16,981 nt of DNA from Candidatus Bathyarchaeia archaeon (GCA_038883775.1 JAVZLM010000013.1:1-16981), one strand, 5' to 3'. Counted from the first letter of the stretch, positions 1 through 16,981 are shown. Translations and numbers: made by a program. The notes: generated by a model not told the origin, from the letters alone.

Positions 1-531
1 CTGGCCAAAGCCGTTTATTCCTTAGATGATGATGTGGATCACTTTTCCTTTTTCATTCTCAGATTGCTTCGAAATGCTGCCCAAGACTCTGTTATAGCAA
101 ATGAGTTTGGCATAGACTCATTGGACTGCATGGATTATCAAACTTTCATATATAGAATTGAACATGCTGCAGACTATTCTTCAAACATAGCGAAACACGT
201 AATAATGTTGGATGAAAGTGGACAAAAAATTCCTGAAAACATTTTGGTGCTTATGTTTGCTGCGGGCACAGAGGCTGTGGATTCTTATGCTAAGGCTGTT
301 AAGGCTTTCTTTTCAAAGGATGTTAATGCATCAAATGAGGTATTGGAACGCCAGCGTAAAATTGAAAAGATGGATCAAGAGATAGCGTCAAAGGCGTTTA
401 TGAGTAAGCAGAAAAACGCATTAACGGTTTGTGCCATCTGTTCTATACGGGAAGACATAAAGAAGATTGCTGATTGTGCAGCGGATATAGCTGAAATTGT
501 TATTAATAGAGCTTATAAAATAGCTATTTAG
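1..531 (+). CDS. PhoU-domain phosphate uptake regulator (5'-truncated by window)
   Basis: Frame is open from base 1 (LAKAVYSLDDDVDHFSFFILR...). PhoU-repeat motifs DDDVD, RIEHAADYSSNIA and IKKIADCAADIAE are present. Confidence 0.8.
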   Translation: MAKAVYSLDDDVDHFSFFILRLLRNAAQDSVIANEFGIDSLDCMDYQTFIYRIEHAADYSSNIAKHVIMLDESGQKIPENILVLMFAAGTEAVDSYAKAVKAFFSKDVNASNEVLERQRKIEKMDQEIASKAFMSKQKNALTVCAICSIREDIKKIADCAADIAEIVINRAYKIAI

Positions 532-2254: not shown

Positions 2255-2338
2255 CTTGATACCTAAAAATAGAATATGGAATGGCTGTATATATATTTCG
2301 TCGAAATACCTTATATATAGATATATGCCGTATATACG

Positions 2339-3205: not shown

Positions 3206-3328
3206 AGCGGCACCTCTAACATGTTATTTACAGCTTTTAACGTTTAAAAATTGCCATTTTATGGGTATGAACCACGAATGCCTTAAATATTCAGTGGCTA
3301 CAACTATGTGTAAGAGGGTGGACATAAA

Positions 3329-3550
3329 ATGACAGAGGTTGTTGAAAAAGGATTAAAGAAAATTGGCATAACAGTTTCAAAACCTGTTCTGGCTGTTCTT
3401 TGCATAATCTTCGGCATCCTTGTAATAGCTATACCAGCTCTTATTGGGATTATAATAGGTATTTTCTTAATAATCGAAGGGGTCTTGCTACTGACAGAAT
3501 ACTTGGAACTTCGAAAACAACAACCAACGCCTTCGCCAACACAATCGTAA
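3329..3550 (+). CDS. small two-TM membrane protein (DUF3096-like)
   Basis: 73 aa with two hydrophobic helices (IIFGILVIAIPALIGIIIGIFLIIEGVL). AGGGTGG RBS-like motif upstream. Confidence 0.65.
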   Translation: MTEVVEKGLKKIGITVSKPVLAVLCIIFGILVIAIPALIGIIIGIFLIIEGVLLLTEYLELRKQQPTPSPTQS

Positions 3551-3553
3551 GCT

Positions 3554-4264
3554 TCAACTTTTCTTTTCTGTTTCTCCCTCTAACAACTTAAACTTTAACA
3601 CACTAACCAGTAATGGCACACCCACAACAAACGAAACTAAAACCACAATTAAATCTTCAACGTATGAGTCGATGGCAGCTCTGACGAATTCTGCATAAAG
3701 TGCGTCGAAATTTGGAAAGAATAAGCCATGCAAACCACATGGAATTAGTAAGAAAACCCTAACAAGCGAGTCTGTGGCTATACAAACAAAAGAAATCAAG
3801 ACTAACTTAATAGGCAGACGTTTAAAATTCATATCAAACAAGTTTCCACCAAACTTGGCTGCTGGATAAATAAGTAAAAACGCAAAAATCACATCAAGAA
3901 TCGTCCATAATGGAAGCCCTTGCCCAAAAGGGTTTCCATAAGGATGTAGGAAATAGGCTGACAAGGTTATTACGTATAACCCTATAACTGGCTTCCATTT
4001 CTTTTTTGCTAGTAAACCCGCAACGAAGACGCTTAGTGGTTCGGCTATTATGCCAAACATCCAAAAATCAATGGGCTTAATCATTCGTGCAATTGAAGAG
4101 CCAATCAATGCGGCTATGAATCCCACTTTTGGACCTAAAAATATTCCTTCTATGGATTCTAGGTATATTCCCCAGTTTCGCCATAGTCCAAATGATATAA
4201 AGTAGAGAACCGCATGCAAAGCTGCGAATACAGAAGCAAGGCTTAATTGTAAGCTTTTTCGCAC
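3554..4264 (-). CDS. ECF transporter S-component-like membrane protein
   Basis: Multi-TM protein. The N-terminal pattern GIFLGPKVGFIAALIGS is typical of ECF S components. Substrate is not inferable. Confidence 0.6.
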   Translation of the reverse strand: MRKSLQLSLASVFAALHAVLYFISFGLWRNWGIYLESIEGIFLGPKVGFIAALIGSSIARMIKPIDFWMFGIIAEPLSVFVAGLLAKKKWKPVIGLYVITLSAYFLHPYGNPFGQGLPLWTILDVIFAFLLIYPAAKFGGNLFDMNFKRLPIKLVLISFVCIATDSLVRVFLLIPCGLHGLFFPNFDALYAEFVRAAIDSYVEDLIVVLVSFVVGVPLLVSVLKFKLLEGETEKKS

Positions 4265-4326
4265 ACAACCACTTCCGACAAATTAAAAATAGAGTAAACT
4301 TTGCTTGTGGTTTATAAGTTTTAAAA

Positions 4327-4926
4327 TTATGCGAAGAGTTGAATGAGGAAGATTATTAGTGCTGTGAAGGCGCCTACGGTTAACATTGCTACGCCATAAA
4401 ACCAGCCGTTTTCCTTTGCCACTTTTCCAAGGTATATGCCCAACAAGAAAAGCGTGATTAATGATAGTGCTAATGAAATTATGTAAGCATTAGACATCGA
4501 CATTAATCCAGCTATAGCGAAAATGAAGGGCGTAAGCGAAATAGTTGCAGTTAATGCTGGTGATAATCCATCAATTAGGGCTACGTAGAATGTGACAAAA
4601 CGTGCAGCTTCATAGTGTATTGGGTCAACCTTGTTTTTTGTCGCATCCTCCATCTCTCGCAAGTGGCGTCTTCTTTCAGCGTTTTCAGCCATAAACGCTC
4701 CAAAGAAGCCTGAAAAGCCCATGGCAAGGCTTGCTCCCAAACCAGCAAGCAAGATAATTTCTGGTTTTGAAACGTTGGCTATCCATGAACCCAAAACTAT
4801 TCCGAAGGCTGTCATGGCTCCGTCAAAACCATTCATTACAAAGTATCTTCTAGCTATGCCACTTGCCTTCGTAATGTGGAGGTAAACCCTAACCTTTTTG
4901 GAAAGTCTCTTGAAAATTTTACTCAA
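4327..4926 (-). CDS. VIT1/CCC1-family membrane protein
   Basis: ARRYFVMNGFDG, LAMGFSGFFGAFMAENAE and LFLLGIYLGKVA motifs; about 5 TM helices. Confidence 0.8.
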   Translation of the reverse strand: MSKIFKRLSKKVRVYLHITKASGIARRYFVMNGFDGAMTAFGIVLGSWIANVSKPEIILLAGLGASLAMGFSGFFGAFMAENAERRRHLREMEDATKNKVDPIHYEAARFVTFYVALIDGLSPALTATISLTPFIFAIAGLMSMSNAYIISLALSLITLFLLGIYLGKVAKENGWFYGVAMLTVGAFTALIIFLIQLFA

Positions 4927-5049
4927 CGGTTATCTCTTCACCCTTGAAAAAGGGCGAAACCTTTGCCCATGTTTAAATCTGGTTCTTTTATACCACAATT
5001 GTTTAATATAAAGTTTTAGAATTCCAACTAAACTCTAAAGGTGAATTAA

Positions 5050-6093
5050 ATGGTGCTTGCCGAAACATTAGAAAAACTGTCTAATGCTTGTGGCGTTGCT
5101 GGTAGAGAAGAAGAGGTTAGAAGTTTGATGAAGACTTTCTTAAAACCATACGTGGACGAAGTTAGAGAGGATAAACTTGGAAACGTAATCGGAGTGAAAA
5201 AGGGAAAGAAGAATGCGCCAAAAATTATGCTTGCAGCTCACATGGACGAAATAGGCTTACTAGTGAAGACAATCTCCAAGGATGGCTACCTACAATTTAC
5301 AAAGATGGGCGGAATAGACGACCGCATACTATTAGCCCAAAAAGTGATAGTCTACACGGAAAAAGGACCCTTACACGGAATAATAGGTTCTAAGCCACCC
5401 CATATCCAAAAGGAAGAGGAACGCAAAAAAGTCCTCACCTACGATGAACTATTCATAGACATTGGAGCCGAAAACGAAGAACAAGCCAAAAAAATGGGAG
5501 TAAAAATTGGAGATCCTGTGGGCTTCGACATAAAATTCGCCAAAGTTGGAAAAGACATTGTTATCGGCAAAGCCTTTGATGACCGTGTGGGATGCGCCGT
5601 AATGGTCGAAGCAATAAAACAATTGAAAGAAACCGAATGCACAGTATACGCCGTAGGAACCGTGCAGGAAGAAGTCGGTTTAAGAGGCGCCACAACAGCC
5701 GCCTTCGGAATATGCCCAGACGTTGGCATAGCCCTCGACGTAACTGTTGCAGGCGACGTGCCAGGAGTAAAAGAAGTTGAGGCTCCAATAAAGCTACGGA
5801 AAGGGCCGTCAATAGAGATTGCGGATATGGGGTTGATTACGCATCCAAAAGTTTTACGTTTGTTGGTGGAGGCAGCTGAAGAAAACAAAATCCCATACCA
5901 GCTTGAAACTGGTTTGCCTGGCTCAACGGACGCAGCCCGCATATCATTAACAAGAGAAGGTGTTCCAAGCGGCGTTATATCGGTGCCGACACGTTACATT
6001 CACAGTCCAGCATCCCTACTTAGCCTAAAAGATGCGGAATATGCCGTAAAATTAACCGTTGCAAGTCTTCAAAAAATTCCAAAATACTTCTAG
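5050..6093 (+). CDS. M42 family aminopeptidase (TET-like)
   Basis: AAHMDEIG, GGID, KAFDDRVG, VQEEVGLRGA, DVT and RYIHSP metal-binding motifs. Confidence 0.95.
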   Translation: MVLAETLEKLSNACGVAGREEEVRSLMKTFLKPYVDEVREDKLGNVIGVKKGKKNAPKIMLAAHMDEIGLLVKTISKDGYLQFTKMGGIDDRILLAQKVIVYTEKGPLHGIIGSKPPHIQKEEERKKVLTYDELFIDIGAENEEQAKKMGVKIGDPVGFDIKFAKVGKDIVIGKAFDDRVGCAVMVEAIKQLKETECTVYAVGTVQEEVGLRGATTAAFGICPDVGIALDVTVAGDVPGVKEVEAPIKLRKGPSIEIADMGLITHPKVLRLLVEAAEENKIPYQLETGLPGSTDAARISLTREGVPSGVISVPTRYIHSPASLLSLKDAEYAVKLTVASLQKIPKYF

Positions 6094-6097
6094 ATAA

Positions 6098-6589
6098 TTG
6101 TCAAATTTTCAACATCAAATCAAGAAGGAATGGAAAATCTTGTCTCAGAAAAACTTGCTTTGCGAAAAGGCGGTGAAACGGTTTCTTAATGGCTATAACT
6201 GCGCCCAAAGCGTCCTATTAACCATGTTTGAATATTGGAATGGAGAAAACGAGCTTATTCCAAAAATTGCTACCGCTTTTGGTGGAGGAATTGGAAGATG
6301 CGGTTCCATTTGTGGAGCTTTGACTGGCGGTGTTATGGCTTTGGGAATTAAGTATGGAACCAATGAACCTTCCTTAGAAAAGCGATTAAAAGCTTACGAA
6401 AAAGCGCAGAAATTTTACAAGCAATTTGGGAGACAGCACGGAAGCGTTTTTTGCCGAGAACTAATCGGATATGACCTTTCAAACCCCAAAGAATTAGAAG
6501 AAGCCCGTAAAGCGAAAGTTTTTGAAGAAAAATGCGCCAACTTCGTTAAGAGCGCCGTTAAAACCTTGTTAAAAATTAGTGGACATTAA
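6098..6589 (+). CDS. C-GCAxxG-C-C family putative redox protein (true start may be TTG at 6140)
   Basis: GYNCAQSV, FGGGIGRCGSICGALTGG, FCREL and KCANFV motifs. Confidence 0.85.
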   Translation: MSNFQHQIKKEWKILSQKNLLCEKAVKRFLNGYNCAQSVLLTMFEYWNGENELIPKIATAFGGGIGRCGSICGALTGGVMALGIKYGTNEPSLEKRLKAYEKAQKFYKQFGRQHGSVFCRELIGYDLSNPKELEEARKAKVFEEKCANFVKSAVKTLLKISGH

Positions 6590-7530
6590 ATTTCCTTCAT
6601 CAAACATTTTATGAAGAAAAACGCCGCCACCGCGGCTATTGCGTAGGCTAAAAACCAAACCAAAATTTGACTAAAAAATGGAGTTTGCTCAAACAAGTCC
6701 CGCGCCACTCTATTTTCCACAATTCCTGTTGGAAAGCTGTTCCAGAGCCCATGGGTTATAATTAATGGGACAAAATTTTTGGCTTTGCTGTAGAAATAAC
6801 CAAACAATAAGCCTATAAAAAATGTAGTAGTTATGTACTGAGCCATGGCAAACGGATTAAATGGATAAAGGTTCCAAACAAAATGCCAAAACCCGAACAA
6901 AATTGCTTGAATAAAAATGGCCTTCCAATCGTAGAATTTTTGAAAGTGCGTTTGAATATAGCCTCTGAAAAGTCCTTCTTCGCTTATGCCAACCAGTAAT
7001 GTATGAAAGGGCATTGATAAAATGAAAGGCAAAATATTGTAGGACAACACTGGCGTTTGATTGGTGAAGGCGTAAATTAGAAGATAAAGAATGAATAATG
7101 CCATTCCGCCGAAAATGATATAGAAGGCTATTCCGTAGAAAATAGCTTTTCCCAATTTTTGTGTTTTGAAACCAAAGGCCGCAACATCAGTTCTTTCAAT
7201 AACGATGATGGTTAAGGTTAAAAGGTAAATTAATGGCAACTTTTCATATGGCATGTTAAACAACAACACCGAAGGGATGCGCACTAGCAGAGCTAAAAAG
7301 AAGAGGGCGAGAACCCATAAAAGAACTACGCCTTTAGCTCTTCCATTAACTTCTTTCGAAAGCTCTGCTGTTGAATAATTTTTCTTCCAAAAATAAAGCG
7401 GAATCAGAAACAATAGTGAAACGATTATTGGAATGAAGCTTTCTCCCGGAAGAACACACCCGCTTATAAGTATAATCAAAGCAACACTGAAATATATTAA
7501 AACAACAGCGGCAACTGTTTTCTTCCCCAT
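6586..7530 (-). CDS. CPBP/CAAX family intramembrane glutamic protease
   Basis: SEEGLFRGY, LFGFWH and HGLWN motifs; many TM helices. ATG at 7530 is preferred over TTG at 7548. Confidence 0.9.
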   Translation of the reverse strand: MGKKTVAAVVLIYFSVALIILISGCVLPGESFIPIIVSLLFLIPLYFWKKNYSTAELSKEVNGRAKGVVLLWVLALFFLALLVRIPSVLLFNMPYEKLPLIYLLTLTIIVIERTDVAAFGFKTQKLGKAIFYGIAFYIIFGGMALFILYLLIYAFTNQTPVLSYNILPFILSMPFHTLLVGISEEGLFRGYIQTHFQKFYDWKAIFIQAILFGFWHFVWNLYPFNPFAMAQYITTTFFIGLLFGYFYSKAKNFVPLIITHGLWNSFPTGIVENRVARDLFEQTPFFSQILVWFLAYAIAAVAAFFFIKCLMKEI

Positions 7531-7648
7531 GTTTTCACAAACTCGCAAGCTTAGCTTATTCCAAAGTGGGAATTAGGGTCTTTAAAATTTATGTAAAAAC
7601 AAAACTATTTTAAAAACGAGATGTTCCAAGATTTACACGGTTAAACCC

Positions 7649-8086
7649 ATGACAGATAAGAAAGGCTACGAGTTTTTAGAGCATATGGCGGATGTTTACA
7701 TTGCTGCTTATGGGAAGAATTTGTCAGAGGCTTTTGAGAATGCCGCCCTTGCAATGTTTGATGTGATGACTGAAGTGGATAAGGTTAATCCAAAAATTAG
7801 GGATGAAGTTGAAGTTGAAGCGAAGGATGAGCATGCGCTTCTTTACAATTGGCTTGAGGCTTTGCTTGTAAAATTCGAAATTGAAGAAATGCTCTATTCA
7901 AAATTTAAAATTTCAAGCTTAGAACATAATTCTGATGGTTTTAGGCTTAGGGCTGAAATTTGGGGAGAAAAGTTTAATCCAAAAAGGCATCCGCAAAAAG
8001 TCGGCGTCAAAGCCGTTACATATCACCGTATGGAAATAATTAAAGAACCAGAAAAAGTCACATTGAAATTTATTCTCGACATATAA
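7649..8086 (+). CDS. archease (RtcB cofactor)
   Basis: YEFLEHMADV, AFENAALAMFD and VKAVTYH motifs, with C-terminal FILDI. Confidence 0.95.
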   Translation: MTDKKGYEFLEHMADVYIAAYGKNLSEAFENAALAMFDVMTEVDKVNPKIRDEVEVEAKDEHALLYNWLEALLVKFEIEEMLYSKFKISSLEHNSDGFRLRAEIWGEKFNPKRHPQKVGVKAVTYHRMEIIKEPEKVTLKFILDI

Positions 8087-8097
8087 ATGCTAGCGTT

Positions 8098-8760
8098 TTA
8101 AGCTAATTTTAATTTTCTTAAACCTTTGAGAATTTCTTTAACAGCTACTTCTGGCGGTATGTCCACACTTTCACATTTAAACTCTACAAAAGGAATTTTC
8201 TTTTCCCTATAATATTGTAGGATAGGTTGAGTTTGCTCTTCATAAACTTGAATTCTTTTCTTTATGACTTCTGGTGTGTCGTCTGGGCGTTGGTAAAGGT
8301 TTCCTCCACACTTGTCACATATCATATCCACTTTGGGTTTTAAATAGCGTATATTGTAGACTTCGCCGCAGTTCTTGCAAATTCTCCTTGTGGATAAGCG
8401 TTCAATGATTATCCATTCTGGCACTATTAGCTGGATAATAACGTCTATTTTGGCAAGATTTTCAAGGAATCTTGCCTGGTCCAAATTGCGTGGGTAACCA
8501 TCCAAAATGAAGCCTTTTCCAAGTGGAATTTTTGCTAATCGTTGCTTTAAAACTTCCACTACCACATCGTCTGGGACAAGCAACCCCTTCTCTACAAAAC
8601 CCTTAACCTTTCTGCCTAATGGCGTGTTTTCCTTCATTATTTCTCTGAAAATATCGCCCATAGCAATAACTTCAACATCAAGCTTAGATTGTAAACGCGA
8701 AGCGTAAGTGCCCTTACCCGAACCAGGCGCACCGAAAATTATTGCATTAACCATTTCCAT
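8098..8760 (-). CDS. adk: adenylate kinase (bacterial-type, Zn-binding LID)
   Basis: P-loop GAPGSGKGT, GDIFRE, GLLVPD, LDGYPR, LID CKNC...CDKC, and QRPDD. Confidence 0.93.
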   Translation of the reverse strand: MEMVNAIIFGAPGSGKGTYASRLQSKLDVEVIAMGDIFREIMKENTPLGRKVKGFVEKGLLVPDDVVVEVLKQRLAKIPLGKGFILDGYPRNLDQARFLENLAKIDVIIQLIVPEWIIIERLSTRRICKNCGEVYNIRYLKPKVDMICDKCGGNLYQRPDDTPEVIKKRIQVYEEQTQPILQYYREKKIPFVEFKCESVDIPPEVAVKEILKGLRKLKLA

Positions 8761-9058
8761 TCACCATGAACATGGCCTACCTTATTTCCGTAAGAAAATT
8801 GTGGGTTGATAAGTATTGCTGTTCAAAGCTTCTGAAAAATTGTTTGAATCCATTTTTGTCATGTTACTTTAGTTTTGAAAATTTTCTAAAAGGTTTCTAT
8901 TGGTCTTAGTTGTTTTTGGTTCAAAAATTCTAGAGAGAGGTATTCAATTTATCTGTGTGGCGAAGCTTAAATTTGATGTTTATTAGCAAGTTTCCAGTTC
9001 TCATCATCAACACAAGACTAAAATTTATAGAAATTAAAATTAGGAAACGGCGGTTAAA

Positions 9059-9661
9059 ATGAAAATTTTGGGCATTTCAGGCTCAAATAGGAAGGATGGC
9101 AACTCATATTTTCTTCTTAAAGAAATGCTTGAAGGCATCTCTCCAATTGAGACGAAAATTGTTCAGGTTGGAGAGTTAAATATCAAGCCTTGTGAGCTTT
9201 GTTTCGAATCTTGCGCCGTAAAGCCCTTTGAATGTGCAATTAAGGATGATTTTCATGTATTATTTGAGGAAATGAAATCTGCAAATGGCATAATCTTCGC
9301 TTGCCCATTCTATTTTTATATCCCATCAAAATTTCAATCAATCCTAGAAAGAATTAGCTGTTTGGACTATTTCACACAGAAGAATCATGGAGAAGGGCAC
9401 AATCCATTAGCTGGCAAACCGTGCCTTCTCATAGCGGTTTCGGCTTCGGGCAGCAGTTTTAACGCTTTCTAAATTCTCCATCACTTGCAAGAGTTTGCCT
9501 TAATGCTTCGCATGAAACCCATAACCATCGATTCTTGGCCGTTTATTGGGTTTTCTGCAAAAACTGGAGAAATGGAGAAAGGCGCAATTCTAAAGGAGAA
9601 GGAAGTTGTAAAGCAAGCTAAAGAATTGGTGCCGCTATTAATAAGAAAGATTAGAAAATAA
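9059..9661 (+). pseudogene. flavodoxin-family / iron-sulfur flavoprotein (NADPH-dependent FMN reductase-like) interrupted by in-frame TAA at 9470-9472
   Basis: MKILGISGSNRKDGNS, PCELCFESC...CAIKDD and ACPFYF motifs. The same frame continues after the TAA for 62 codons (ILHHLQEFALMLRMKP...KQAKELVPLLIRKIRK) to TAA 9659-9661, giving a normal ~200-aa length. Confidence 0.8.
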
Positions 9662-9664
9662 CTT

Positions 9665-10135
9665 TTAACGGATTAAGAAGGTTATTTCTTTCACGAGGGT
9701 TTCTGGAATTATTGCTCTTCCCTTTCGCTTATTTAGTTTAACAAAGCCGAATTTGCTTAGCACTTTTAGGTCTTGGTAAACGTTTTTCACGTTTCGCCTC
9801 ACTTTTTGGGCTAAATCGTTTATTGACTCCACCCTTAAAGTGGCAAGTTGATGCAGCAATTCCATCCTTTTAGGCGTCAACAAAGCCGCCTGTTCAGGCT
9901 TAAAATTTCTTATTTCTTCAACCACATAGTCAACGGTTCCTTCTTCCATGTAAACCTTATAACTATCTACAAGCTCCGCCCACTCAAAATAAGCTCTTAC
10001 ATTTTTGGCGTCCAACTTTTGTCTTAAAAAGAGTTCCTCAAACTTTTCGAAGCCCATGCCAAACTCTTTCTCAAACTTTCTAATCTTTTCCAATATTTCT
10101 TCAGAGGTTAAGTTTCGAACAATTTTTAGAAACAT
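9665..10135 (-). CDS. HTH transcriptional regulator / antitoxin-like protein (HVO_A0114/COG4190-like C-terminus)
   Basis: LLTPKRMELL...ESINDLAQKVRRNVKNVYQDLKVLSKFGFV is a winged-HTH pattern. Confidence 0.7.
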   Translation of the reverse strand: MFLKIVRNLTSEEILEKIRKFEKEFGMGFEKFEELFLRQKLDAKNVRAYFEWAELVDSYKVYMEEGTVDYVVEEIRNFKPEQAALLTPKRMELLHQLATLRVESINDLAQKVRRNVKNVYQDLKVLSKFGFVKLNKRKGRAIIPETLVKEITFLIR

Positions 10136-10249
10136 GAAGGTTCACAATTAAAAGATATACTCATTTGCTTAAAATGTTCACTATGGAAATACTTAAGGCA
10201 ACGAATGTACACTTTAAAATTCCATTTAAAATTATGAGTTGAAGGAAAA

Positions 10250-11167
10250 ATGCCAACAAAAATTGGAGAAAACCTCTATCTTATCGACGTCCAAGCTGGC
10301 GGAGTCAAGAATTTTATCGCCAGCTATGTCCTTAAAGGAGAGAAAGTGGCAATAATTGAAACAGGTCCCACTTCTTCTGTGCCAAATTTGCTTTCAGAGT
10401 TAAAGGGACTTAATGTAAAGCCTGAAGACGTAGCTTACGTAGCTGTCTCTCACATACACCTTGACCATGGAGGTGGTGTTGGAACACTACTAAAATTTTT
10501 GCCAAAAGCCAAAGTAATTGTCCACCTAAGGGCAGCACCTCATCTGGCGAACCCGGAAAAACTTTGGCAACAATCAAAAGCAGTCCTTAAGGACATAGCC
10601 GAAATTTATGGCGAACCAGAACCAGTTCCTGAAGAAAGGATTATTGCTGCAACGGATGGGATGACTTTTGATGTTGGGAATGATGTCAAACTAAGGGTTG
10701 TGGAGACTTTGGGGCATGCTTCCCATCATCAAAGCTATTATGAACCATCCAGCGAGAGTCTTTTTCCAGGGGATGCTGCGGGCATTTATTTAAGCGAAAT
10801 TGACGCAATTGTGCCTACTACGCCTTCTCCTTTTCGTTTAGATATAGCATTAACCTCTTTGGATAAGTTGATGAGCCTAAAACCTAAAACGCTATATTAC
10901 ACTCACTTTGGCAAAGCAAGCAACCCCCCAGAAAAACTTCAGGCATATTCGCAGCAGCTGAAACTTTGGGCAAAAATTGTAAAGCAAAGCTTAGAAAGTG
11001 GGGAAAATTTGGAAATGATAAGCGAGCGAATAATAAAGAGCGATAGGTCAGTTCAGAGGGCTTTTGAACACATTCGGGTTCATCCAGTTTTAAACCAAAC
11101 AGTGTTTAACGAAAGTTTGCGCGGTTTCATGAATTTTGTAGAGAAATTTGGCTGGAACCAACCTTAA
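10250..11167 (+). CDS. MBL-fold metallo-hydrolase
   Basis: IETGP, SHIHLDHGGG, GHASHH, FPGDAAG and THFG motifs. Confidence 0.92.
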   Translation: MPTKIGENLYLIDVQAGGVKNFIASYVLKGEKVAIIETGPTSSVPNLLSELKGLNVKPEDVAYVAVSHIHLDHGGGVGTLLKFLPKAKVIVHLRAAPHLANPEKLWQQSKAVLKDIAEIYGEPEPVPEERIIAATDGMTFDVGNDVKLRVVETLGHASHHQSYYEPSSESLFPGDAAGIYLSEIDAIVPTTPSPFRLDIALTSLDKLMSLKPKTLYYTHFGKASNPPEKLQAYSQQLKLWAKIVKQSLESGENLEMISERIIKSDRSVQRAFEHIRVHPVLNQTVFNESLRGFMNFVEKFGWNQP

Positions 11168-11234
11168 TTGTTTTGGTGTAAACGCCAAAATTGTTTATAT
11201 TCCAGCCACAATATTCGTATAAACTGGTGAAAAA

Positions 11235-12713
11235 ATGGGAGAAGAAGAAAGCCGTCCCCCTCCAGAAAAGGTTCCATTAGAAAAAATAGACAATTACACA
11301 TGGCGCATACCAAAATACAAACCAGGCATGCGGGTTCCAGGAATAATCTTTGCCAATGGCGAGTTATTGGAGAAAATGCAGACGGATAGAACGCTTTGGC
11401 AATGCGCAAACGTTGCCCATTTACCAGGCATATACAAATACTCTATAACCCTTCCAGACGGGCATGAAGGTTATGGTTTCCCAATAGGCGGAGTAGCCGC
11501 AACAGACTACGAAGAAGGAGTAATCAGCCCAGGCGGGGTGGGTTACGACATAAACTGCGGGGTTCGCCTATTAACAACAAACCTTTCAGAACAAGACATA
11601 CGCCCAAAACTCGCCCAACTAACAAACACAATTTTTGAAAATGTTCCATGCGGGCTTGGAAGTCGCAGAAAGGATTTTAAAGCCACAGCCCACGACCTGG
11701 AAAGGCTTGTTACGGAGGGAGTTCAATGGGTCATCGATCAAGGACTGGGCTGGTCTGAGGATGCTGAACACTGCGAAGAGCGTGGGTGCATGAAAAATGC
11801 GAATCCGGACAAAGTTTCAACAACCGCCAAAAACCGAGGCGTAACACAGATTGGCACTTTAGGCTCAGGAAACCACTTCCTAGAAATTCAAAAAGTAGAC
11901 AAAATCTACGACGCCAAAACCGCTAAAATCTTCGGAATAGAACATGAAGGACAAGTAACAGTTATGATTCACTGCGGCTCCAGAGGCTTCGGCCATCAAA
12001 TATGTTCAGATTATTTGAGGGTTATGGAAAGAGCTGTGCACAAATACAAGATAGTTTTGCCAGACCGAGAACTTGCATGTGCCCCGGGAAAAAGCAATGA
12101 AGCGGAAGACTATTATCAGGCGATGGCTTGCGCTGTTAATTATGCCTTTGCTAATCGTCAAGCCATAATGCATTGGGTTAGACAAAGCTTTCAACAAGTT
12201 TTTAAAGAAGACCCAGAAAGGTTTGGTTTAAAACTTGTCTATGACGTAGCTCATAACATTGCAAAAATAGAAGAGCATAGAATTAATGGAGAGAAAAAGA
12301 AGGTTTGGGTTCACAGAAAAGGTGCAACAAGAGCCTTCCCAAAAGGGCATCCAGAAATTCCAGCTGATTATGCTTCAGTGGGTCAGCCCGTGCTTATTCC
12401 TGGTAGCATGGGGACAAGCTCTTGGCTCTTGGTGGGTACTGAAAAAGCCATGCAAATAAGTTTCGGCTCCACAGCCCACGGCGCTGGGAGAATGCTAAGC
12501 AGAAATGCTGCCAAAAGGAGATTCTGGGGTGGAGACGTGAAAAAGGCTTTGGAGCAGCGAGGAATCTTTGTTAGGTCTGAAAGTTCTGTTGTTTTGGCTG
12601 AGGAGGCAGATCCAGCCTACAAAAACGTTGACATAGTTGCAGATGTGAGCGATAAGGTTGGAATAGCCACAAAAGTTGCGAGATTTGTTCCAATAGCTGT
12701 GGTAAAGGGCTAA
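11235..12713 (+). CDS. rtcB: tRNA-splicing ligase RtcB
   Basis: PDGHEGYGFPIGG, GYDINCG, GTLGSGNHF, HCGSRG, HN, HRKGAT, PGSMG, HGAGR, EEADPAYK and terminal VVKG motifs. Confidence 0.97.
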   Translation: MGEEESRPPPEKVPLEKIDNYTWRIPKYKPGMRVPGIIFANGELLEKMQTDRTLWQCANVAHLPGIYKYSITLPDGHEGYGFPIGGVAATDYEEGVISPGGVGYDINCGVRLLTTNLSEQDIRPKLAQLTNTIFENVPCGLGSRRKDFKATAHDLERLVTEGVQWVIDQGLGWSEDAEHCEERGCMKNANPDKVSTTAKNRGVTQIGTLGSGNHFLEIQKVDKIYDAKTAKIFGIEHEGQVTVMIHCGSRGFGHQICSDYLRVMERAVHKYKIVLPDRELACAPGKSNEAEDYYQAMACAVNYAFANRQAIMHWVRQSFQQVFKEDPERFGLKLVYDVAHNIAKIEEHRINGEKKKVWVHRKGATRAFPKGHPEIPADYASVGQPVLIPGSMGTSSWLLVGTEKAMQISFGSTAHGAGRMLSRNAAKRRFWGGDVKKALEQRGIFVRSESSVVLAEEADPAYKNVDIVADVSDKVGIATKVARFVPIAVVKG

Positions 12714-12716
12714 GCG

Positions 12717-13115
12717 CTAAGCTTTCTTTTTCCTTGTTTTTAGTTCTTGTTCTCTGTAGCCTTGTTCAGAATTTAGTTTCTTTTGGATTTTTATTCTCTT
12801 TTCTTCCACGGAATGCGCCTTATGTATTTCCTTCATGTACCATCCTCTTTCCCTGGCGTAATGAACGCTAACAATAATTCCAGCTAAGAGTAAAACCAAA
12901 CCAACAGATGTTAAAGTTAAACCTAAAAGGCTGTATGGATGTGATGTTAGATGGTATGGAATTATCAAAAGCCACTCTGGATTCTCAACTTTTATAACTG
13001 TTTCAAGCAGTCCGCCAACAAAAAATATGGAGCCTATTATAATTATTAAATATCCAACAGTTTCATTATGTCTCGATTCTTCCGCCTTTTCATGCAAGTA
13101 TTCGCTAAAAAGCAT
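12717..13115 (-). CDS. hypothetical two-TM membrane protein
   Basis: ATG start, two hydrophobic segments and a charged C-terminal tail. Fits neatly between neighbours. Confidence 0.7.
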   Translation of the reverse strand: MLFSEYLHEKAEESRHNETVGYLIIIIGSIFFVGGLLETVIKVENPEWLLIIPYHLTSHPYSLLGLTLTSVGLVLLLAGIIVSVHYARERGWYMKEIHKAHSVEEKRIKIQKKLNSEQGYREQELKTRKKKA

Positions 13116-13237
13116 AAAAATTCACGATTTGAGCAGCAACATGGTTGTCTATAAACTTTATTGCAATTTCCGAATAGCTTTATAACAAAAGCCTCAAATA
13201 GTTATTAAACAACGCCTCGCGTTTACATGTGGTTTGG

Positions 13238-13906
13238 ATGCCGTTAAAAGACGAATGTGGCATATGCGGCAGAGTTCTTCCTTACGCCTACCTTAGACGC
13301 TGTCAAAGGTGTGGAAAACTTTTCTGCAAAGATTGCATGGTCCCGGATGTTTCAACCGGCGACCGCACAAAAATGCTGTGCCTTCACTGTGCAAGAAAAA
13401 TTGTTTCTCCAAAATCGACCACAAAATATGGAGCACTCACCAACTATCTAAAATTCAGGGCAGCCTTCACCAATACCGTTAAGCTTTCCCTTGCCGAAAT
13501 AGATGGAATAATAAAAGATAACTTGCCCATAAACGCCTATAAAAACGAGGAATGGTGGAACAACCCAACCAACGCCCATGCCAAGGCTTGGATAGACGCT
13601 GGATGGAAAGTGCAAAAGATAAATTTGAAAGAAGGCTACGTGATCTTCCAAAAAGTAAAGAAAATACAAGCAGAGGGTTTTAAGAAAAAGGCTGAAGGCA
13701 AAGAAACCAAAAAGCCCTTCACACCTGTTCCTGCGCGTTTTCCAAAAAGCAAAAAACCATCAAAAACAAAAGTTTCAAAACTCTACGCCAGACTCAAAAA
13801 CATAGAAAGACAAAAAACTGCCATGCCTCTATACCCTGGCAGTTTTAAACAAAAACCAACACATGAAAAGAAGCTATTCAAGCCGGAAAAGAAACCACAA
13901 GTATAA
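13238..13906 (+). CDS. Zn-finger protein with DUF7662-like domain and Lys/Pro-rich tail
   Basis: Four CxxC pairs (CGIC, CQRC, CKDC, CLHC), then KYGALTNYL...LAEIDGII...LP...WWNN...AKAWIDAGWKV. The DUF7662-like assignment is from memory and unverified. Confidence 0.7.
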   Translation: MPLKDECGICGRVLPYAYLRRCQRCGKLFCKDCMVPDVSTGDRTKMLCLHCARKIVSPKSTTKYGALTNYLKFRAAFTNTVKLSLAEIDGIIKDNLPINAYKNEEWWNNPTNAHAKAWIDAGWKVQKINLKEGYVIFQKVKKIQAEGFKKKAEGKETKKPFTPVPARFPKSKKPSKTKVSKLYARLKNIERQKTAMPLYPGSFKQKPTHEKKLFKPEKKPQV

Positions 13907-13919
13907 AAAGAAATTTTAT

Positions 13920-14243
13920 CTATACCCATTCTAAATATCCAATTAGAAGCAATTGCGGTCGTCGTCTAGTCTGGTTAGGACACAAGCCTTCCAAGCTTGC
14001 GATCCCGGGTTCAAATCCCGGCGACCGCACCATAGAACTTTCTCTTTTTGGTAAAAGAGAACCTTCACTAAGAGAAAATCCATTTTTAGAATTGTTTTGT
14101 TGTCGTATTTGGTTTTGGATTTGTTCTATTCCTTTTAGGTAGAAATGAAGTAGGTTTTCAACTGTTCTGCTTAAGCTAAGTCCGTATTGTTCTGCTTTTT
14201 CTAAAAGCTCTTTTTCTATGCGTATTGTTGTAACTGCTTTCAT
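13920..14243 (-). CDS. integrase N-terminal fragment Int(N) with RHH/CcdA-like head, overlapping tRNA-Gly antisense
   Basis: ATG 14243 with GGTGAG RBS. MKAVTTIRIEKELLEKAEQYGLSLSRTVENLL is RHH-like. The frame enters the tRNA 3' end as MVRSPGFEPG, as expected for an att site embedded in an integrase gene. Confidence 0.75.
   Translation of the reverse strand: MKAVTTIRIEKELLEKAEQYGLSLSRTVENLLHFYLKGIEQIQNQIRQQNNSKNGFSLSEGSLLPKRESSMVRSPGFEPGIASLEGLCPNQTRRRPQLLLIGYLEWV
13955..14032 (+). tRNA. tRNA-Gly (anticodon TCC), intronless, encoded CCA
   Basis: Acceptor stem GCGGTCG/CGACCGC, D-arm GTCTAGTCTGGTTAGGAC, anticodon arm CAAGC-CTTCCAA-GCTTG (TCC at 13990-13992), T-arm CCGGG-TTCAAAT-CCCGG, then ACCA. 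Confidence 0.97.
14035..14066. repeat. inverted repeat/hairpin immediately downstream of tRNA
   Basis: TTCTCTTTT (14040-14048) - TGGT - AAAAGAGAA (14053-14061), extendable by GAA/TTC after a 2x2 mismatch. Confidence 0.6.
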
Positions 14244-14275
14244 AAGCTCACCATATATCAACTGATATACATTAG

Positions 14276-14431
14276 CTACTCTTTCTTTTCCGTTTCTATG
14301 AGTTTTGATATTGCGTATTCTATGGCATGACTTCTATTCGCAAACTTAAGTTTCTGCACCTGCTCATCTATCCATTTAACGAAGTCTTCTCTTATGGTTA
14401 CGTAAACTCTTATTTTTGGCATTTCAACCAT
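14276..14431 (-). CDS. CopG/ribbon-helix-helix DNA-binding protein
   Basis: MVEMPKIRVYVTIREDFVKWIDEQVQKLKFANRSHAIEYAISKL: alternating beta strand plus NRSHAI helix. GGAAGTGA RBS-like motif before ATG 14431. Confidence 0.85.
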   Translation of the reverse strand: MVEMPKIRVYVTIREDFVKWIDEQVQKLKFANRSHAIEYAISKLIETEKKE

Positions 14432-14466
14432 GTTTATTTTCACTTCCTTTATGAGTATTTTATCCA

Positions 14467-14503
14467 CAACTATACTCAACTATACACAAATCTTATAAGA
14501 TTT
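14467..14503. promoter_or_regulatory. palindromic TATA-containing site plus tandem operator-like repeats
   Basis: Perfect 16-bp palindrome AAATCTTATAAGATTT (14488-14503) centred on TTATAA. CAACTATAC occurs at 14467 and 14477 (10-bp period). The site lies between divergent ORFs. Confidence 0.6.
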
Positions 14504-14545
14504 TCCATTTACATAATAGGATTTGCCTTTAAGGTGAGTGAGAAA

Positions 14546-14650
14546 ATGGAAAGCGAAAGCGTTTTCAAAACTGTTGATTTTGGCATCATAGACTTTGGCG
14601 AGGGAGATGCTGAAATAACAAGTATAGTGGTCAATGAAGCAGTTGCATAA
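14546..14650 (+). CDS. putative 34-aa acidic peptide
   Basis: AAGGTGAGTGAG RBS, then ATG: MESESVFKTVDFGIIDFGEGDAEITSIVVNEAVA. Confidence 0.4.
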   Translation: MESESVFKTVDFGIIDFGEGDAEITSIVVNEAVA

Positions 14651-14795
14651 AGCATGAACGATGATAATACCGTTTGCTTGTCTTAACGACAACTTCGCCC
14701 TTCTGGATTTCTTTGCCACAAACAGAACATTCAATTTTATGGTTTAATTTTCTGTTAAGATGACTTTGCATTAACCTAAACTGTTCCATACGCAT
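14631..14795 (-). CDS. 54-aa zinc-finger microprotein (CxxC...HxxC)
   Basis: Manual translation MRMEQFRLMQSHLNRKLNHKIECSVCGKEIQKGEVVVKTSKRYYHRSCFMQLLH. It is below the ORF-track length cutoff and directly follows the 133-aa ORF on the same strand. Confidence 0.7.
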   Translation of the reverse strand: MRMEQFRLMQSHLNRKLNHKIECSVCGKEIQKGEVVVKTSKRYYHRSCFMQLLH

Positions 14796-14821
14796 CTATG
14801 TTTAAAGAAACCATGAAAAGT

Positions 14822-15223
14822 TTAAATATTTTCATTGAGAAATTCTTTAATCATATCATCCTTATTCAAAGGTTCAAACATATTATACCATTCTCTAAGT
14901 GAGTGATGTTCTATTATTTTGGATTGTGATGTAATAATTTGTTTGTCTGGAATGATGATTATAGCTCTGTTAAAGAGGTGATTTGGTTTAAACCTTAGAT
15001 ATTGGTAAAATTCGTGTTCTCTTTTTGGGTGGCAATAGAATCCTGGTAATGGCAATTTTTTAAGAGGTAAATGTTTGAGGTGTCTATGAATTATTATTCT
15101 AAAGCTGTTTCGGTCTGGATATTGTTTTTCAAAGTCTGAATAAATTACGTCTATTAATTCTTTGGGAGTGCCAAAGCTAAACATGTCAAAAAATTTGATT
15201 ATGGCAATGTCAATGTCATCCAT
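14822..15223 (-). CDS. hypothetical protein, possible N-terminal winged helix
   Basis: 133-aa ORF with ATG start. MDDIDIAIIKFF...TPKELIDVI...IIIHRHLKHL loosely resembles a wHTH. Confidence 0.6.
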   Translation of the reverse strand: MDDIDIAIIKFFDMFSFGTPKELIDVIYSDFEKQYPDRNSFRIIIHRHLKHLPLKKLPLPGFYCHPKREHEFYQYLRFKPNHLFNRAIIIIPDKQIITSQSKIIEHHSLREWYNMFEPLNKDDMIKEFLNENI

Positions 15224-15239
15224 TGTTACATCTGTAACA
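15224..15239. promoter_or_regulatory. inverted repeat operator candidate TGTTACA-TC-TGTAACA
   Basis: Perfect 7-bp arms abutting the ATG of 14822..15223, in the 64-bp divergent spacer before an RHH gene. Confidence 0.5.
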
Positions 15240-15287
15240 TATCAGACTTTATGACAATTTAAGACTTGTTGACAAAGGTGTGTTAAA

Positions 15288-15446
15288 ATGCAAAAAGTAA
15301 GAATAAGCGTGAGAATTGATGGAGAAGATTTCCAGAGAATCCAGGAAACCATAAAGAAAGCATATCCAACTTTACGGTCTATTTCAGACGTTATCCGTGC
15401 CTCTTTGAAAGAATTTCTTAAAAAGTATGAGGAGGGGTGTGTGTGA
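15288..15446 (+). CDS. ribbon-helix-helix DNA-binding protein (52 aa)
   Basis: Manual translation MQKVRISVRIDGEDFQRIQETIKKAYPTLRSISDVIRASLKEFLKKYEEGCV. AAGGTG RBS. Classic RHH pattern (RISVRI...SISDVIRASL). Confidence 0.85.
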   Translation: MQKVRISVRIDGEDFQRIQETIKKAYPTLRSISDVIRASLKEFLKKYEEGCV

Positions 15447-15626
15447 GTGTGTGTGTATTGTCTTTGTTCTTTTCTTCTTTCTTCTTTACTCATCATACTC
15501 ATATACTCATACATACACACATACACACCCCTTCATTAATGAATAGACTCTCCGAAACTGAAGACTCCGAAGCTGGAAGCTCTGCAACTTCTCTGATAAT
15601 ACACACACTCACACATACACACACCC
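15434..15626. repeat. (GT)n/(CA)n imperfect inverted-repeat region with internal short repeats and palindrome
   Basis: GGGGTGTGTGTGAGTGTGTGTGTATT (15434-15459) is complementary to ATACATACACACATACACACCCC (15509-15531) and AATACACACACTCACACATACACACACCC (15598-15626). Also TACTCAT x3, palindrome TTCATTAATGAA (15532-15543) and CTCCGAARCTG x2. Confidence 0.85.
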
Positions 15627-15641
15627 TGAAAGGTGATGTTC

Positions 15642-15881
15642 ATGGTTAGACGTGACGGAGCAGAAATAAGAAAAGAAAGAATCCAGGAAGTTGTCAAAAG
15701 AGTAGTAAGTTTACTGTTCAATAATGATGAGATAGAGCTGGAATCCACAATTGCATTGTTGGAATATGAAACGGGGTTAACTCCAGAAAAAATAATGGAA
15801 TATTTGGATATTGGAGAACGTCTTAAACGGTTTGAGGTTGACATTGACAAAGACAGAATCAGAAAAATAAAAGAAAGCTGA
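15642..15881 (+). CDS. 79-aa hypothetical protein, possible winged-helix DNA-binding
   Basis: AGGTGA RBS before ATG 15642. LLEYETGLTPEKIMEYLDIGERLKRFEVD resembles an HTH plus wing. Confidence 0.7.
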   Translation: MVRRDGAEIRKERIQEVVKRVVSLLFNNDEIELESTIALLEYETGLTPEKIMEYLDIGERLKRFEVDIDKDRIRKIKES

Positions 15882-15886
15882 TTCCA

Positions 15887-15979
15887 ATGGATACTGAAAC
15901 TTTGATTATTGCCGTCTTATGTTTTATAATCGGTTTCTTATTGCGTGATAAAATCGTTAATTGGAGAACCAAAAAATGA
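15887..15979 (+). CDS. 30-aa single-TM peptide
   Basis: MDTETLIIAVLCFIIGFLLRDKIVNWRTKK. Starts 5 nt after the previous stop, and its TGA overlaps the next ATG (ATGA). Confidence 0.6.
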   Translation: MDTETLIIAVLCFIIGFLLRDKIVNWRTKK

Positions 15980-16077
15980 GTGTTGAAGCGTGGTTCTGGT
16001 TTGTTGTTGGAATCGGTTTCGGGTGGAGTTTGTGTTTGCTGGTTCAGTTATTGTTTGGTGATGGAAATGAAGACTAA
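15976..16077 (+). CDS. 33-aa single-TM peptide
   Basis: MSVEAWFWFVVGIGFGWSLCLLVQLLFGDGNED. ATGA-coupled to the upstream ORF, with GGAG upstream. Confidence 0.6.
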   Translation: MSVEAWFWFVVGIGFGWSLCLLVQLLFGDGNED

Positions 16078-16264
16078 ACGCAGATACGTGATTAAGCAAA
16101 AAATCTGCAAAACTGCAAGTGTCATGCTAATATGGTGCTATATCCTGGCGATCCTGGAATCGCTAATTTCCAAATCCTTATTTCCCTTACTTCTGGTTTC
16201 CCTATGTGATTATGCCATAACAGTTTTGCCAAGCTTCTTTATCAAAGAAAAAGAGGAAACATAA
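16067..16264 (+). CDS. 65-aa membrane protein with basic N-terminus
   Basis: GGTGA RBS at 16057, then MKTKRRYVIKQKICKTASVMLIWCYILAILESLISKSLFPLLLVSLCDYAITVLPSFFIKEKEET. This is the 3' part of track ORF 15980..16264. Confidence 0.6.
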   Translation: MKTKRRYVIKQKICKTASVMLIWCYILAILESLISKSLFPLLLVSLCDYAITVLPSFFIKEKEET

Positions 16265-16359
16265 TGGATGCATTACAAAGTTTAATCGCTATAGTTATTC
16301 TTGCATTGTTCTTTTTAATTCTACTTGCATTATGCAAAAAGGGATTAGAACCCATATAG
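16264..16359 (+). CDS. 31-aa single-TM peptide
   Basis: MDALQSLIAIVILALFFLILLALCKKGLEPI. TAATG stop/start coupling, with GAGG upstream. Confidence 0.6.
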   Translation: MDALQSLIAIVILALFFLILLALCKKGLEPI

Positions 16360-16584
16360 TTGTTACAAGTGTAGTGTGTAGCGTAGAGGAGGGTTATTTT
16401 TCAGAAAAATTGCTACAACTACACAATTCATTTATGATTTTCATGGAAAAAGACGCAAGCTTAAAACGCTTGCAGTTGTTCGTAGAAATATAATTTTTCC
16501 ACGGTTCAGCTATGAAAGACAAGCACATTTTTACTCAGTTAGGCCTACCCTTTCCGATTAAAAAGTCTAAAAGAAAAAGGGAAG

Positions 16585-16981
16585 TTAAGAGATTTGGGTT
16601 TGAATCTCAGCTATTGCTTTGAACACTCGCTCTTTGAGATCGCATATCAAAGCTGGATTGAAATAGTGTTCCATGAAAACGTTTGAGCTTACTCTTCCCT
16701 GAATGAAATCTATCTCTTCCCTGCGTAAATATTTCGTGTAGAATGTAGCTGCCACTTCTCTAATATCATTGAACCTTAACGTTAATCCTTTCTTTCTAAT
16801 TCTCTCTTCAACTGCATATCTGGAATTTGGCAAAGGATTATTGAAAGCTATCTTTTCAATTAACCCTTTAGGAATGAAACTAATGAATACTTTTTTGCTA
16901 CGTCTAAGAAAAATGTCTTTAAACTTGTAATGCTCTAACGCTTCCTTCTCTTCATTATAATAATCGCTAAGCTTATGCTTC
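16585..16981 (-). CDS. int: SSV1-type tyrosine integrase, catalytic C-terminal fragment (5' end beyond window)
   Basis: Frame is open to the window edge: KHKLSDYYNEEKEALEHYKFKDIFLRRSKKVFISFIP...RFNDIREVAATF...EEIDFIQGRVSSNVFMEHYFNP. It has RxxK, NDIR, IDFIQGR and the catalytic HY typical of archaeal SSV-like integrases. Confidence 0.88.
   Translation of the reverse strand, partial: KHKLSDYYNEEKEALEHYKFKDIFLRRSKKVFISFIPKGLIEKIAFNNPLPNSRYAVEERIRKKGLTLRFNDIREVAATFYTKYLRREEIDFIQGRVSSNVFMEHYFNPALICDLKERVFKAIAEIQTQIS

Follow-up and report, generated by a model that had tools for sequence, protein, structure and literature searches.

The right-hand end of a 16,981-nucleotide stretch of DNA from a hot-spring archaeon, a member of Candidatus Bathyarchaeia (GCA_038883775.1, JAVZLM010000013.1:1-16981; the whole stretch is referred to here as the window) carries an insertion at a tRNA-Gly(UCC) gene. 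The insertion is site-specific, lies at the 3' part of the tRNA gene and was made by a self-splitting integrase, the gene of which is split. It is considered probable, with a probability of about 0.8, that positions 14033-16981 represent the left ~85% of an element of ~3.45 kb, which encodes a 'suicidal' integrase of the SSV1/pTN3 type and bears the backbone of a wider family of elements. The window is the entire contig C13 of a 28-contig, 1.69-Mb assembly (G000, the bin), and the right copy of the attachment site (att) lies beyond position 16981. A preliminary description of the window had already proposed a miniature element with a split integrase at this tRNA gene.

The target, tRNA-Gly(UCC) (13955-14032, plus strand), is the only tRNA called in the window by ARAGORN (tcc), and matches the Rfam tRNA family with 67.7 bits. 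The left att core, attL, comprises 45 nucleotides (nt; 13988-14032), which correspond by exact string match to tRNA positions 34-78 and recur unchanged as the att copy at the element's far end; the same 45 nt precede the C-terminal integrase part, Int(C), in a relative (L031). The tRNA gene remains intact because an identical 3' part is supplied by the element. At the orthologous tRNA-Gly(UCC) loci on G000:C4, which has the same left flank and tRNA gene as the window, and in another two members of the genus (G001:C17 and G003:C30), similarity to the window is lost after position 14032. As this similarity ends at the final base of the tRNA, the left boundary of the insertion is placed at 14032/14033. 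High-depth contigs from runs X2 and X4 have 30 extra letters at window position 13984 (tRNA-Gly position 30) and match elsewhere; these may derive from an intron-bearing tRNA-Gly of other community members.

A minus-strand open reading frame (ORF) of 113 amino acids (aa; 13920-14261), containing ...SSMVRSPGFEPGIASLE..., is read antisense across the 3' part of the tRNA. Comparison with L126 and with the intact integrase P0004 was used to pick the start of the N-terminal integrase part, Int(N) (13920-14243, minus strand), at ATG 14243 (MKAVTTIRIEKELL...), from where it encodes a ribbon-helix-helix (RHH) domain and a linker and runs through the att (14032-13988) to a stop at 13920, the element-encoded portion being 14243-14033. 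The N-terminal part matches Pfam CcdA/RHH (E 3e-5; 24.8 bits, cutoff 22.4). The 113-aa ORF is not due to chance, because homology links it to the N-terminal ends of two intact integrases, L052 (E 5.7e-19) and P0004 (E 3e-14). Int(C) (16588-16980, minus strand) encodes the last 131 aa of the catalytic domain, is open at its 5' end and is cut off where the contig ends at 16981. A match to PF16795, 'Archaeal phage integrase' (E 8e-9, 36 bits, cutoff 27), covers profile positions 65-152 of 161, and Int(C) is therefore taken to be the C-terminal catalytic part. At the amino acid level it is 89% identical to P0001 and 81% to P0004. Neither half of the integrase is interrupted by an internal stop.

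The right end has been rebuilt from a genome of the same genus. A DNA search of 61 related genomes identified a contig (G004:C7, also recorded as L004/L016) of which bases 1-94 match window positions 16888-16981 with 98% identity; the two Int(C) sequences are 97% identical across a 31-aa overlap. The minus strand of this contig encodes the remainder of Int(C) and carries, at 552-596, positions 34-78 of tRNA-Gly(UCC) as an exact copy of 45 nt. The Int(C) frame translates this copy as ...LVRSPGFEPGIASLEDSEV..., in the phase of the window Int(N), and has no N-terminal domain of its own but opens inside the att repeat. Together, the fragments tile the intact L052 integrase, with the window Int(N) covering residues 1-97, the N-part of the G004 Int(C) 67-262 and the window Int(C) 235-363. 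In window-equivalent coordinates the far repeat lies at 17439-17483, and the period of 3,451 bp is the size of the element. G004 lacks the left flank of the window, and the host part of G004:C7 is ~88-90% identical to the main G000 genome; C13 and G004:C7 would fit as neighbouring pieces of one species. The preliminary description is largely upheld by these results. The minus-strand frame that it saw entering the tRNA 3' end is the 113-aa ORF, the catalytic end of a tyrosine integrase that it placed on the same strand matches PF16795, and ORF calls confirm that only micro-genes lie between the fragments, the largest being of 133 aa. Likewise, the tRNA-Gly repeat that it expected upstream of Int(C) was found, Int(C) does not belong to an intact integrase with its own start, the joined fragments are in frame with the right end taken from G004:C7, and the size that it gave for the circle, roughly 3.5-4 kb, holds at 3,451 bp.

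Intact relatives of the integrase indicate how the two halves would have been joined. P0004, a 359-aa protein found by protein search, proceeds from an RHH domain (MKVRTSILIEKAIL...) through ...LVRSPGFEPGIASLEDL... to the recombinase core, and its linker contains the peptide VRSPGFEPGIASLE, which is identical in the 113-aa ORF of the window. RHH domain, att-containing linker and core form one uninterrupted ORF at ten of 91 loci on genome or metagenome contigs, and all ten of these intact integrases match both PF16795 and CcdA/RHH in Pfam. When they are aligned, the linker is the sole unconserved part and its sequence tracks the targeted tRNA; the att thus placed by the alignment appears to be located where the protein tolerates any peptide. 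Because the linker would accept any att peptide, in either of two frames, the target could switch without damage to the protein, and the family illustrates how a recombination site can reside within coding sequence. An AlphaFold model of one intact integrase (mean predicted local distance difference test, pLDDT, 79.7) has an N-terminal helix pair, consistent with an RHH fold, followed by a disordered segment (residues 47-81) which contains the att-encoded peptide and, after the linker, by a helical core-binding domain and a catalytic domain. Foldseek searches with the model returned tyrosine recombinases, including archaeal XerA (4a8e, E 6.9e-4), and the catalytic domain of the SSV1 integrase (3uxu/3vcf) with TM(target), a template-modelling score, of 0.62-0.63 and a probability of 1.00, at an E of only 0.05-0.1. 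A sequence-profile search of the integrase against the PDB gave no meaningful match.

The catalytic set of tyrosine recombinases comprises, by motif position, Arg, Lys, Arg and Tyr. R216, K261/K262, R306, R328 and Y338 are invariant in the alignment of the ten intact relatives, and on alignment the window Int(C) retains the KK, DIRE, GR and HYF motifs, with Ala in place of H309 of the relatives. The first catalytic Arg falls in the part beyond the window, where G004:C7 shows GMRL. On the free circle, a single ORF of ~369 aa would encode an RHH DNA-binding domain, a disordered linker for which the 45-bp attP is the coding DNA, and a tyrosine-recombinase core. When attP recombines with the tRNA gene, the tRNA is restored and int is split, with Int(N) left on the tRNA side and Int(C) on the far side, a split that the sequences show. 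By analogy with the integrases of SSV2, pTN3 and pT26-2, the intact enzyme may carry out integration as well as excision with no need of a directionality factor. Excision would then need an intact integrase in trans, from an episomal copy or an incoming relative, because neither half is expected to be active alone.

Related elements were surveyed by a pattern scan of species-representative genomes, which gave 21 loci, and among the best 80 of 261 relatives in JGI metagenomes. Sixteen of the 21 species-representative loci are filed under Candidatus Bathyarchaeia or Bathyarchaeota. Matches at E <= 1e-10 were present in 35 of 301 sampled genomes of the class, G000 included, and 24 of the matching genomes other than G000 fall among the 48 genomes of the window's family. 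Of 101 loci (L031-L131), 16 have paired att copies, one of them within a tRNA gene; G038:C7 and G000:C3 bring the number of complete integrated elements to 18. The nine smallest measure 2,574, 2,881, 3,287, 3,795, 3,984, 4,072, 4,102, 4,161 and 4,284 bp, and the nine largest 4,608, 4,827, 4,842, 4,974, 5,613, 5,905, 6,270, 6,323 and 7,176 bp, with a median of ~4.4 kb. Their att pairs span 35-80 nt, and in 14 of the 18 elements the two copies agree exactly over 41-49 nt. At least eight amino acids are represented among the targeted tRNA genes (Gly, Thr, Val, Pro, Ala, Arg, Glu and Leu). Two further contigs carry terminal direct repeats, of 48 nt in the first and 127 nt in the second, and yield circles of 5,551 and 4,301 bp respectively; the integrase is uninterrupted across each junction. 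Most of the 18 integrated elements and two circular contigs come from Bathyarchaeia. The first of these circles (L034, a contig of 5,599 nt) is binned as a bacterium of the Thermodesulfovibrionales, and two other small contigs are placed in Archaeoglobaceae and Aenigmatarchaeota bins; all three are likely to be misbinned mobile contigs. The proposal in the preliminary description of a new family of minimal elements must be tempered in the light of this survey. The related elements it called for do exist, as the 18 complete relatives of 2,574-7,176 bp, and the window element is small (at 3,451 bp it would rank fourth smallest of 19 sized), but the family is large and such elements are known elsewhere.

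Only the integrase is common to all 21 elements compared, the next real families being present in 7, 7, 6, 5 and 5. L126, a 3,795-bp element at a tRNA-Ala gene, lies complete on a single contig of 4,059 nt and has the gene order of the window element, and L036 (4,842 bp, tRNA-Thr) combines the module of the window with a 357-aa GH99-like protein. The 51-aa protein RHH67 of L036 is 94% identical to that of the window at the amino acid level, its Int(C) only 60%; L031 has integrase and att in common with the window and none of the window's cargo. On these sequence comparisons, integrase and cargo appear to recombine freely. Larger relatives such as L036, being the same module with extra genes, could also suggest that the window holds a dead remnant without present mobility, which would have arisen by deletion from a larger integrated element and be decaying, its suicidal integrase having trapped it. 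Integration does inactivate integrases of this type, according to the available sections of PMC7253208, and the bin contains four split integrases and no intact one. Decay is nevertheless very unlikely, as neither integrase half contains an internal stop, the two att copies agree at all 45 nt, the cargo genes are under purifying selection, and the same att peptide occurs in intact integrases of the attP form. The same small architecture is, moreover, found at another tRNA gene in L126 and has therefore moved as a unit.

In the compact integrative element favoured here, the remaining 2.3 kb would encode two RHH proteins, one zinc finger, two possible winged helix-turn-helix (wHTH) proteins and three or four tiny membrane proteins, with a (TG)n/(CA)n region among them. 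RHH67 (14279-14431, minus strand), a CopG-like RHH protein beginning MVEMPKIRVYV, has weak matches to RHH_1/HicB-like Pfam models and is present in 7 of 21 elements; compared with L126 it is 98% identical, with 13 synonymous codon changes and one nonsynonymous. ZF54 (14634-14795, minus strand), present in 5 of 21, is a 54-aa zinc-finger protein (CxxC...HxxC) matching Pfam LIM (E 1.5e-5) and other zinc-finger models. The largest cargo ORF, orf133 (14825-15223, minus strand), falls in no Pfam or PHROG family and has homologues in 3 of 21 elements; it is possibly a winged-helix DNA-binding protein, its ESM Atlas structure giving helix-turn-helix and wHTH leads which are all sub-threshold. RHH52 (15288-15446, plus strand), a 52-aa Arc/CopG-like RHH protein (Pfam RHH_1, E 0.006; PHROG Arc-like repressor, E 0.005), is 79-88% identical at the amino acid level in L036, L042 and L011. 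Beyond the non-coding region lies orf82 (15633-15881, plus strand), a conserved 82-aa protein with 72-79% identity in L036, L126, L042 and L011; a wHTH fold is possible, and its ESM Atlas matches are clusters of Bathyarchaeota without names (0.91-0.95). In RHH52 and orf82, synonymous change exceeds the expectation from random substitution. Judged by these codon comparisons, the micro-genes are real and under purifying selection.

The non-coding region (15430-15632) is made up of a (TG)n arm, a polypyrimidine tract and a pair of (CA)n arms, and includes inverted repeats I1, I5, I6 and I11. The spacer of ~200 nt between RHH52 and orf82 is conserved in L042, L036 and L011, and in L126 the (CA)n arm beside orf82 is conserved, the slice covering that arm only. 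On the L034 circle a CA/TG-rich stretch is visible in ORF translations only. No Rfam family was matched in the region, the only Rfam match being to the tRNA, and its hairpin potential is no better than that of shuffled sequences (z -1.29). It is, as a guess, a candidate regulatory region or replication origin.

Downstream of orf82, a run of tiny predicted membrane proteins (15887-16359, plus strand) was read from hydrophobic stretches rather than by a predictor. The predicted proteins of 30 aa (15887-15979) and 38 aa (15961-16077) have homologues in a 2.9-kb element on G004:C2 and in L126, as does the 67-aa protein with two hydrophobic helices (16061-16264), which is present in 7 of 21 elements; the 31-aa protein (16264-16359) is without support from conservation. 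Searches of the window cargo ORFs against Pfam and PHROGs returned nothing beyond RHH, zinc-finger and weak matches and identified no replication, capsid, packaging or conjugation protein, and their sequence profiles matched VP1/VP3 or any other fusellovirus gene in none of the ORFs, the 67-aa protein included. Pfam recognised no replicase domain in 19 larger ORFs of relatives. These ORFs do include defence genes: the 5.6-kb element L062 encodes a Shedu SduA_C nuclease (1226-2545, E 7e-15) and the 7.2-kb element L046 encodes parts of an ABC-3C system (9089-11830; DUF2326, E 2e-32, with CTD10 and an HNH nuclease). Others encode NosD/beta-helix (L070) or dockerin-bearing (L034) proteins, the GH99-like protein of L036, an aspartyl protease and a zf-AN1 protein (both L100), and a weak STAND-like NTPase. 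The lack of a recognised replicase and the differing cargo of the relatives lead to the view that the family comprises compact integrative carriers, of which the window element is a nearly bare backbone. Such carriers, of 2.6-7.2 kb, would be mostly integrated and pass through a circular stage, with accessory or defence genes on the larger members; the family indeed appears to carry its defence genes (Shedu and ABC-3C) on carriers of 5-7 kb. It can be guessed that the circle is copied by the host replication machinery at the repeat region.

The same absence of any recognised replicase or structural gene, in the element and its relatives alike, could also point to a satellite, for which a helper would supply replication, transfer and an intact integrase. 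The helper might be a spindle-shaped or other virus of Bathyarchaeia, or a larger plasmid with the same integrase family, and the small membrane proteins and regulators would then serve to manipulate helper or host. Circular forms of relatives exist, L042 has an intact integrase of the same family inside a larger composite element, and a spindle-shaped provirus of Bathyarchaeia with a tyrosine integrase has been described in the accessible text of PMC10848311. However, no helper was identified, no capsid or packaging protein was matched among PHROGs, and the 57 pattern matches to the integrase in IMG/VR included no confirmed relative (0 confirmed); dependence on a helper is accordingly considered unlikely. 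A bolder idea, and one held to be quite improbable, is that these 2.6-7-kb replicase-less circles are the smallest self-sufficient archaeal replicons, the integrase acting as initiator or copy control at the (TG)n/(CA)n region and export taking place in vesicles or minimal virions. If this were true, the 67-aa two-helix protein, which recalls the capsid proteins of spindle-shaped viruses, and the other tiny membrane proteins would mediate export, and the family would constitute a novel class of archaeal virus or plasmid of ultra-small size, ferrying defence cassettes between Bathyarchaeia.

Several points weigh against the reading of the window as a compact integrative element with a single 3.45-kb circle. 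The main one is that its right end was taken from a separate assembly through an overlap of only 94 nt with 2 mismatches. L031, in which Int(C) is 91% identical at the nucleotide level and the 45-nt att is the same, has a 13-nt duplication after the att, and L031, P0002 and P0003 translate the same tRNA-Gly att in the other frame, as CGRRDLNPGSQAWKT; if the true right end of the window resembled that of L031, the halves would be out of frame. An in-frame right end is more likely, because the match to G004:C7 is 98% and that to L031 91%. Among contigs assembled from public runs no clean attP or empty-attB junction was found for the element, which they cover patchily, the best share being 0.24. 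One such contig of 366 nt is identical to 16849-16981 and extends 233 nt beyond the window end. A joint that 'goes back' from 16679 to 13984 with 17 extra letters occurs in three runs of one study, its short side being of 35 letters, and is not interpretable. The bin has no intact integrase of the window's family and so offers no source in trans, the circular contigs of relatives could in principle derive from tandem copies, and the absence of a replicase is a matter of profile searches alone.

Some of these points bear on whether Int(N) and Int(C) might belong to different elements, as a hybrid or an assembly artefact that arose through tandem or recombined insertions or a chimeric contig, in which case there would be no single 3.45-kb circle. 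The contig stops inside Int(C), and several assemblies break in such genes; N and C parts evolve separately, as in L126, where Int(N) is 71% identical to that of the window in amino acids and Int(C) only ~69% in nucleotides over 166 nt; L042 has a tandem or hybrid arrangement; and the flanks of tRNA-Gly are rearranged among members of the genus. A mixed origin remains the most improbable of explanations considered, since Int(N), the Int(C) of G004:C7 and the intact P0004 read the same att in the same frame, and the order of the cargo is that of L126 and L036, complete relatives which each occupy a single contig.

With a compact integrative element retained as the reading of the insertion, the make-up of the bin may be considered. 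Window positions 1-13954 are ~88% identical to parts of the large contigs G000:C2 and G000:C4, and contigs C11, C12, C18, C26 and C27 are similar diverged doubles of large contigs; tRNA-Gly(UCC), tRNA-His and tRNA-Cys are each present twice. Because its small contigs are diverged doubles of large ones, C13 is assigned to a second, related population in the bin. A blastn search of the element against the bin returned tRNA matches only, and a simple repeat scan of the bin identified no CRISPR array. On C4, ~11.9 kb (31500-43374) that are absent from the window (12690-12713) lie between RtcB and the gene for a 132-aa membrane protein, and may be another insertion in the main genome. G000:C3 holds a complete split pair of the window's integrase family at tRNA-Val (5,905 bp); its Int(C) frame opens within a 44-nt repeat of the tRNA's 5' part, and its Int(N), which bears an RHH domain, extends into the tRNA. 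The family is represented a third time by tRNA-Thr(GGT) and an RHH Int(N) at the end of C8 (126084-126431), with the matching N-part of Int(C) and an exact 44-nt att at C19:1-335. C19 had been considered as the continuation of C13 and was rejected, its att being the 3' part of tRNA-Thr(GGT) and pairing with the Int(N) at the C8 end. The fourth element (L027, C8:36044-39054; 2,933 bp) occupies tRNA-Gly(GCC) with a 47-nt att pair and has a split integrase of another subfamily, its Int(N) being without an RHH domain and its Int(C) without a tblastn match to the window's family; its cargo includes an AbrB-like ORF of 88 aa and one of 188 aa.

Rearrangement at the target genes is apparent in several places. 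Placing the right flank of the window by synteny failed, no contig of the bin being homologous to the C4 flank, because the right flanks of tRNA-Gly(UCC) differ among members of the genus. On G001:C17 (L024) the DNA to the right of tRNA-Gly(UCC) is homologous to the flank beyond the att repeat of the tRNA-Gly(GCC) element in G000 (C8:27081-36090), and glycine tRNA flanks have possibly been exchanged through recombination between att sites sharing ~30 nt. A tandem or hybrid arrangement is seen in L042 (6490-9366), where a larger composite includes an intact integrase of the family; next comes the RHH52/(CA)n/orf82 module and, after it, a second Int(N), which is split and runs into tRNA-Ala. The family may drive rearrangements at tRNA genes. 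Assemblies are broken inside integrase genes of the family on G000:C13, G000:C19, G004:C7, G188:C16, G112:C82, G294:C23, G309:C26 and G288:C8, which suggests that such breaks reflect near-identical stretches of co-resident elements or population heterogeneity; for the binning of metagenomes they are a practical caution.

Bathyarchaeia rank among the most abundant archaea of sediments and hot springs and have barely been cultivated, and to our knowledge no genetic tools exist for them. A module as compact as this one, with a single integrase of ~360 aa and its attP in a disordered linker, could seed a vector for these organisms.

Among the closest known systems are the fuselloviruses, the genomes of which measure ~15 kb. 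SSV1 and SSV2 resemble the window element in having attP inside the int ORF, an att of 40-50 bp that matches a segment of a tRNA gene exactly, and an integrase split into Int(N) and Int(C), as set out in the available sections of PMC8371274. With SSV1, likeness extends to the catalytic domain, PF16795, and to its solved structure. The window element differs from both in its size of 3.45 kb, in that no VP1/VP3 was found, in the RHH N-terminus of its integrase, and in its host, which belongs to Bathyarchaeia and not Sulfolobales. In the two integrase papers searched for it, neither RHH nor ribbon-helix-helix was found as a term.

The elements of the pTN3/pT26-2 type are plasmids that encode their own replication proteins and measure ~10-20 kb or more. 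They occur in Thermococcales, Methanococcales and Archaeoglobales and share with the window's family a self-splitting integrase; hybrid integrases, with N and C parts of separate histories, and chromosome rearrangement at att are also reported for them in the accessible parts of PMC7253208 and PMC5495485. The window's family shows signs analogous to these hybrids and rearrangements (L042, L031, L126 and the glycine tRNA flanks). In contrast to these plasmids, its members are of 2.6-7.2 kb with no recognised replicase, and sequence similarity is at the level of Pfam domains only. A plasmid replication protein (primase-polymerase/helicase or Rep), as expected of integrative plasmids of the pTN3, pT26-2 or pRN kind, was recognised neither in the window cargo nor in the 19 larger ORFs of relatives. 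Other comparators are pSSVi and pSSVx, satellites of Sulfolobus spindle-shaped viruses, which like the window's family are small circular elements, one of them with an SSV-type integrase. Both are of ~5.7 kb and need a helper virus to spread, pSSVi being an integrase-bearing satellite of fuselloviruses.

The cryptic integrated elements (CIE) of Thaumarchaeota also have an integrase, no viral or conjugative hallmarks and, often, a tRNA gene as target; according to the available text of PMC6563490 they range from 2.6 kb upward with a median of 17 kb, commonly carry RHH and zinc-ribbon proteins, and include NitEve-E3, which has a split SSV1-like integrase and encodes MCM. The window element fits the definition of a CIE, a class which is set by exclusion and says little on mechanism. 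It differs from CIE in that the host belongs to another class, the median of its relatives is ~4.4 kb and no replication protein was recognised, and the RHH-fused integrase and shared backbone module are specific to its family. Self-splitting integrases of the SSV type and small cryptic elements are thus known from Sulfolobales, Thermococcales, Methanococcales, Archaeoglobales and Thaumarchaeota (available sections of PMC8371274, PMC7253208 and PMC6563490). Among the papers listed in literature searches, none ties suicidal integrases to Bathyarchaeia or Bathyarchaeota, and none describes such elements in its title or abstract. What is new is the combination of an RHH-fused suicidal integrase with replicase-less elements near 4 kb in a Bathyarchaeia host.

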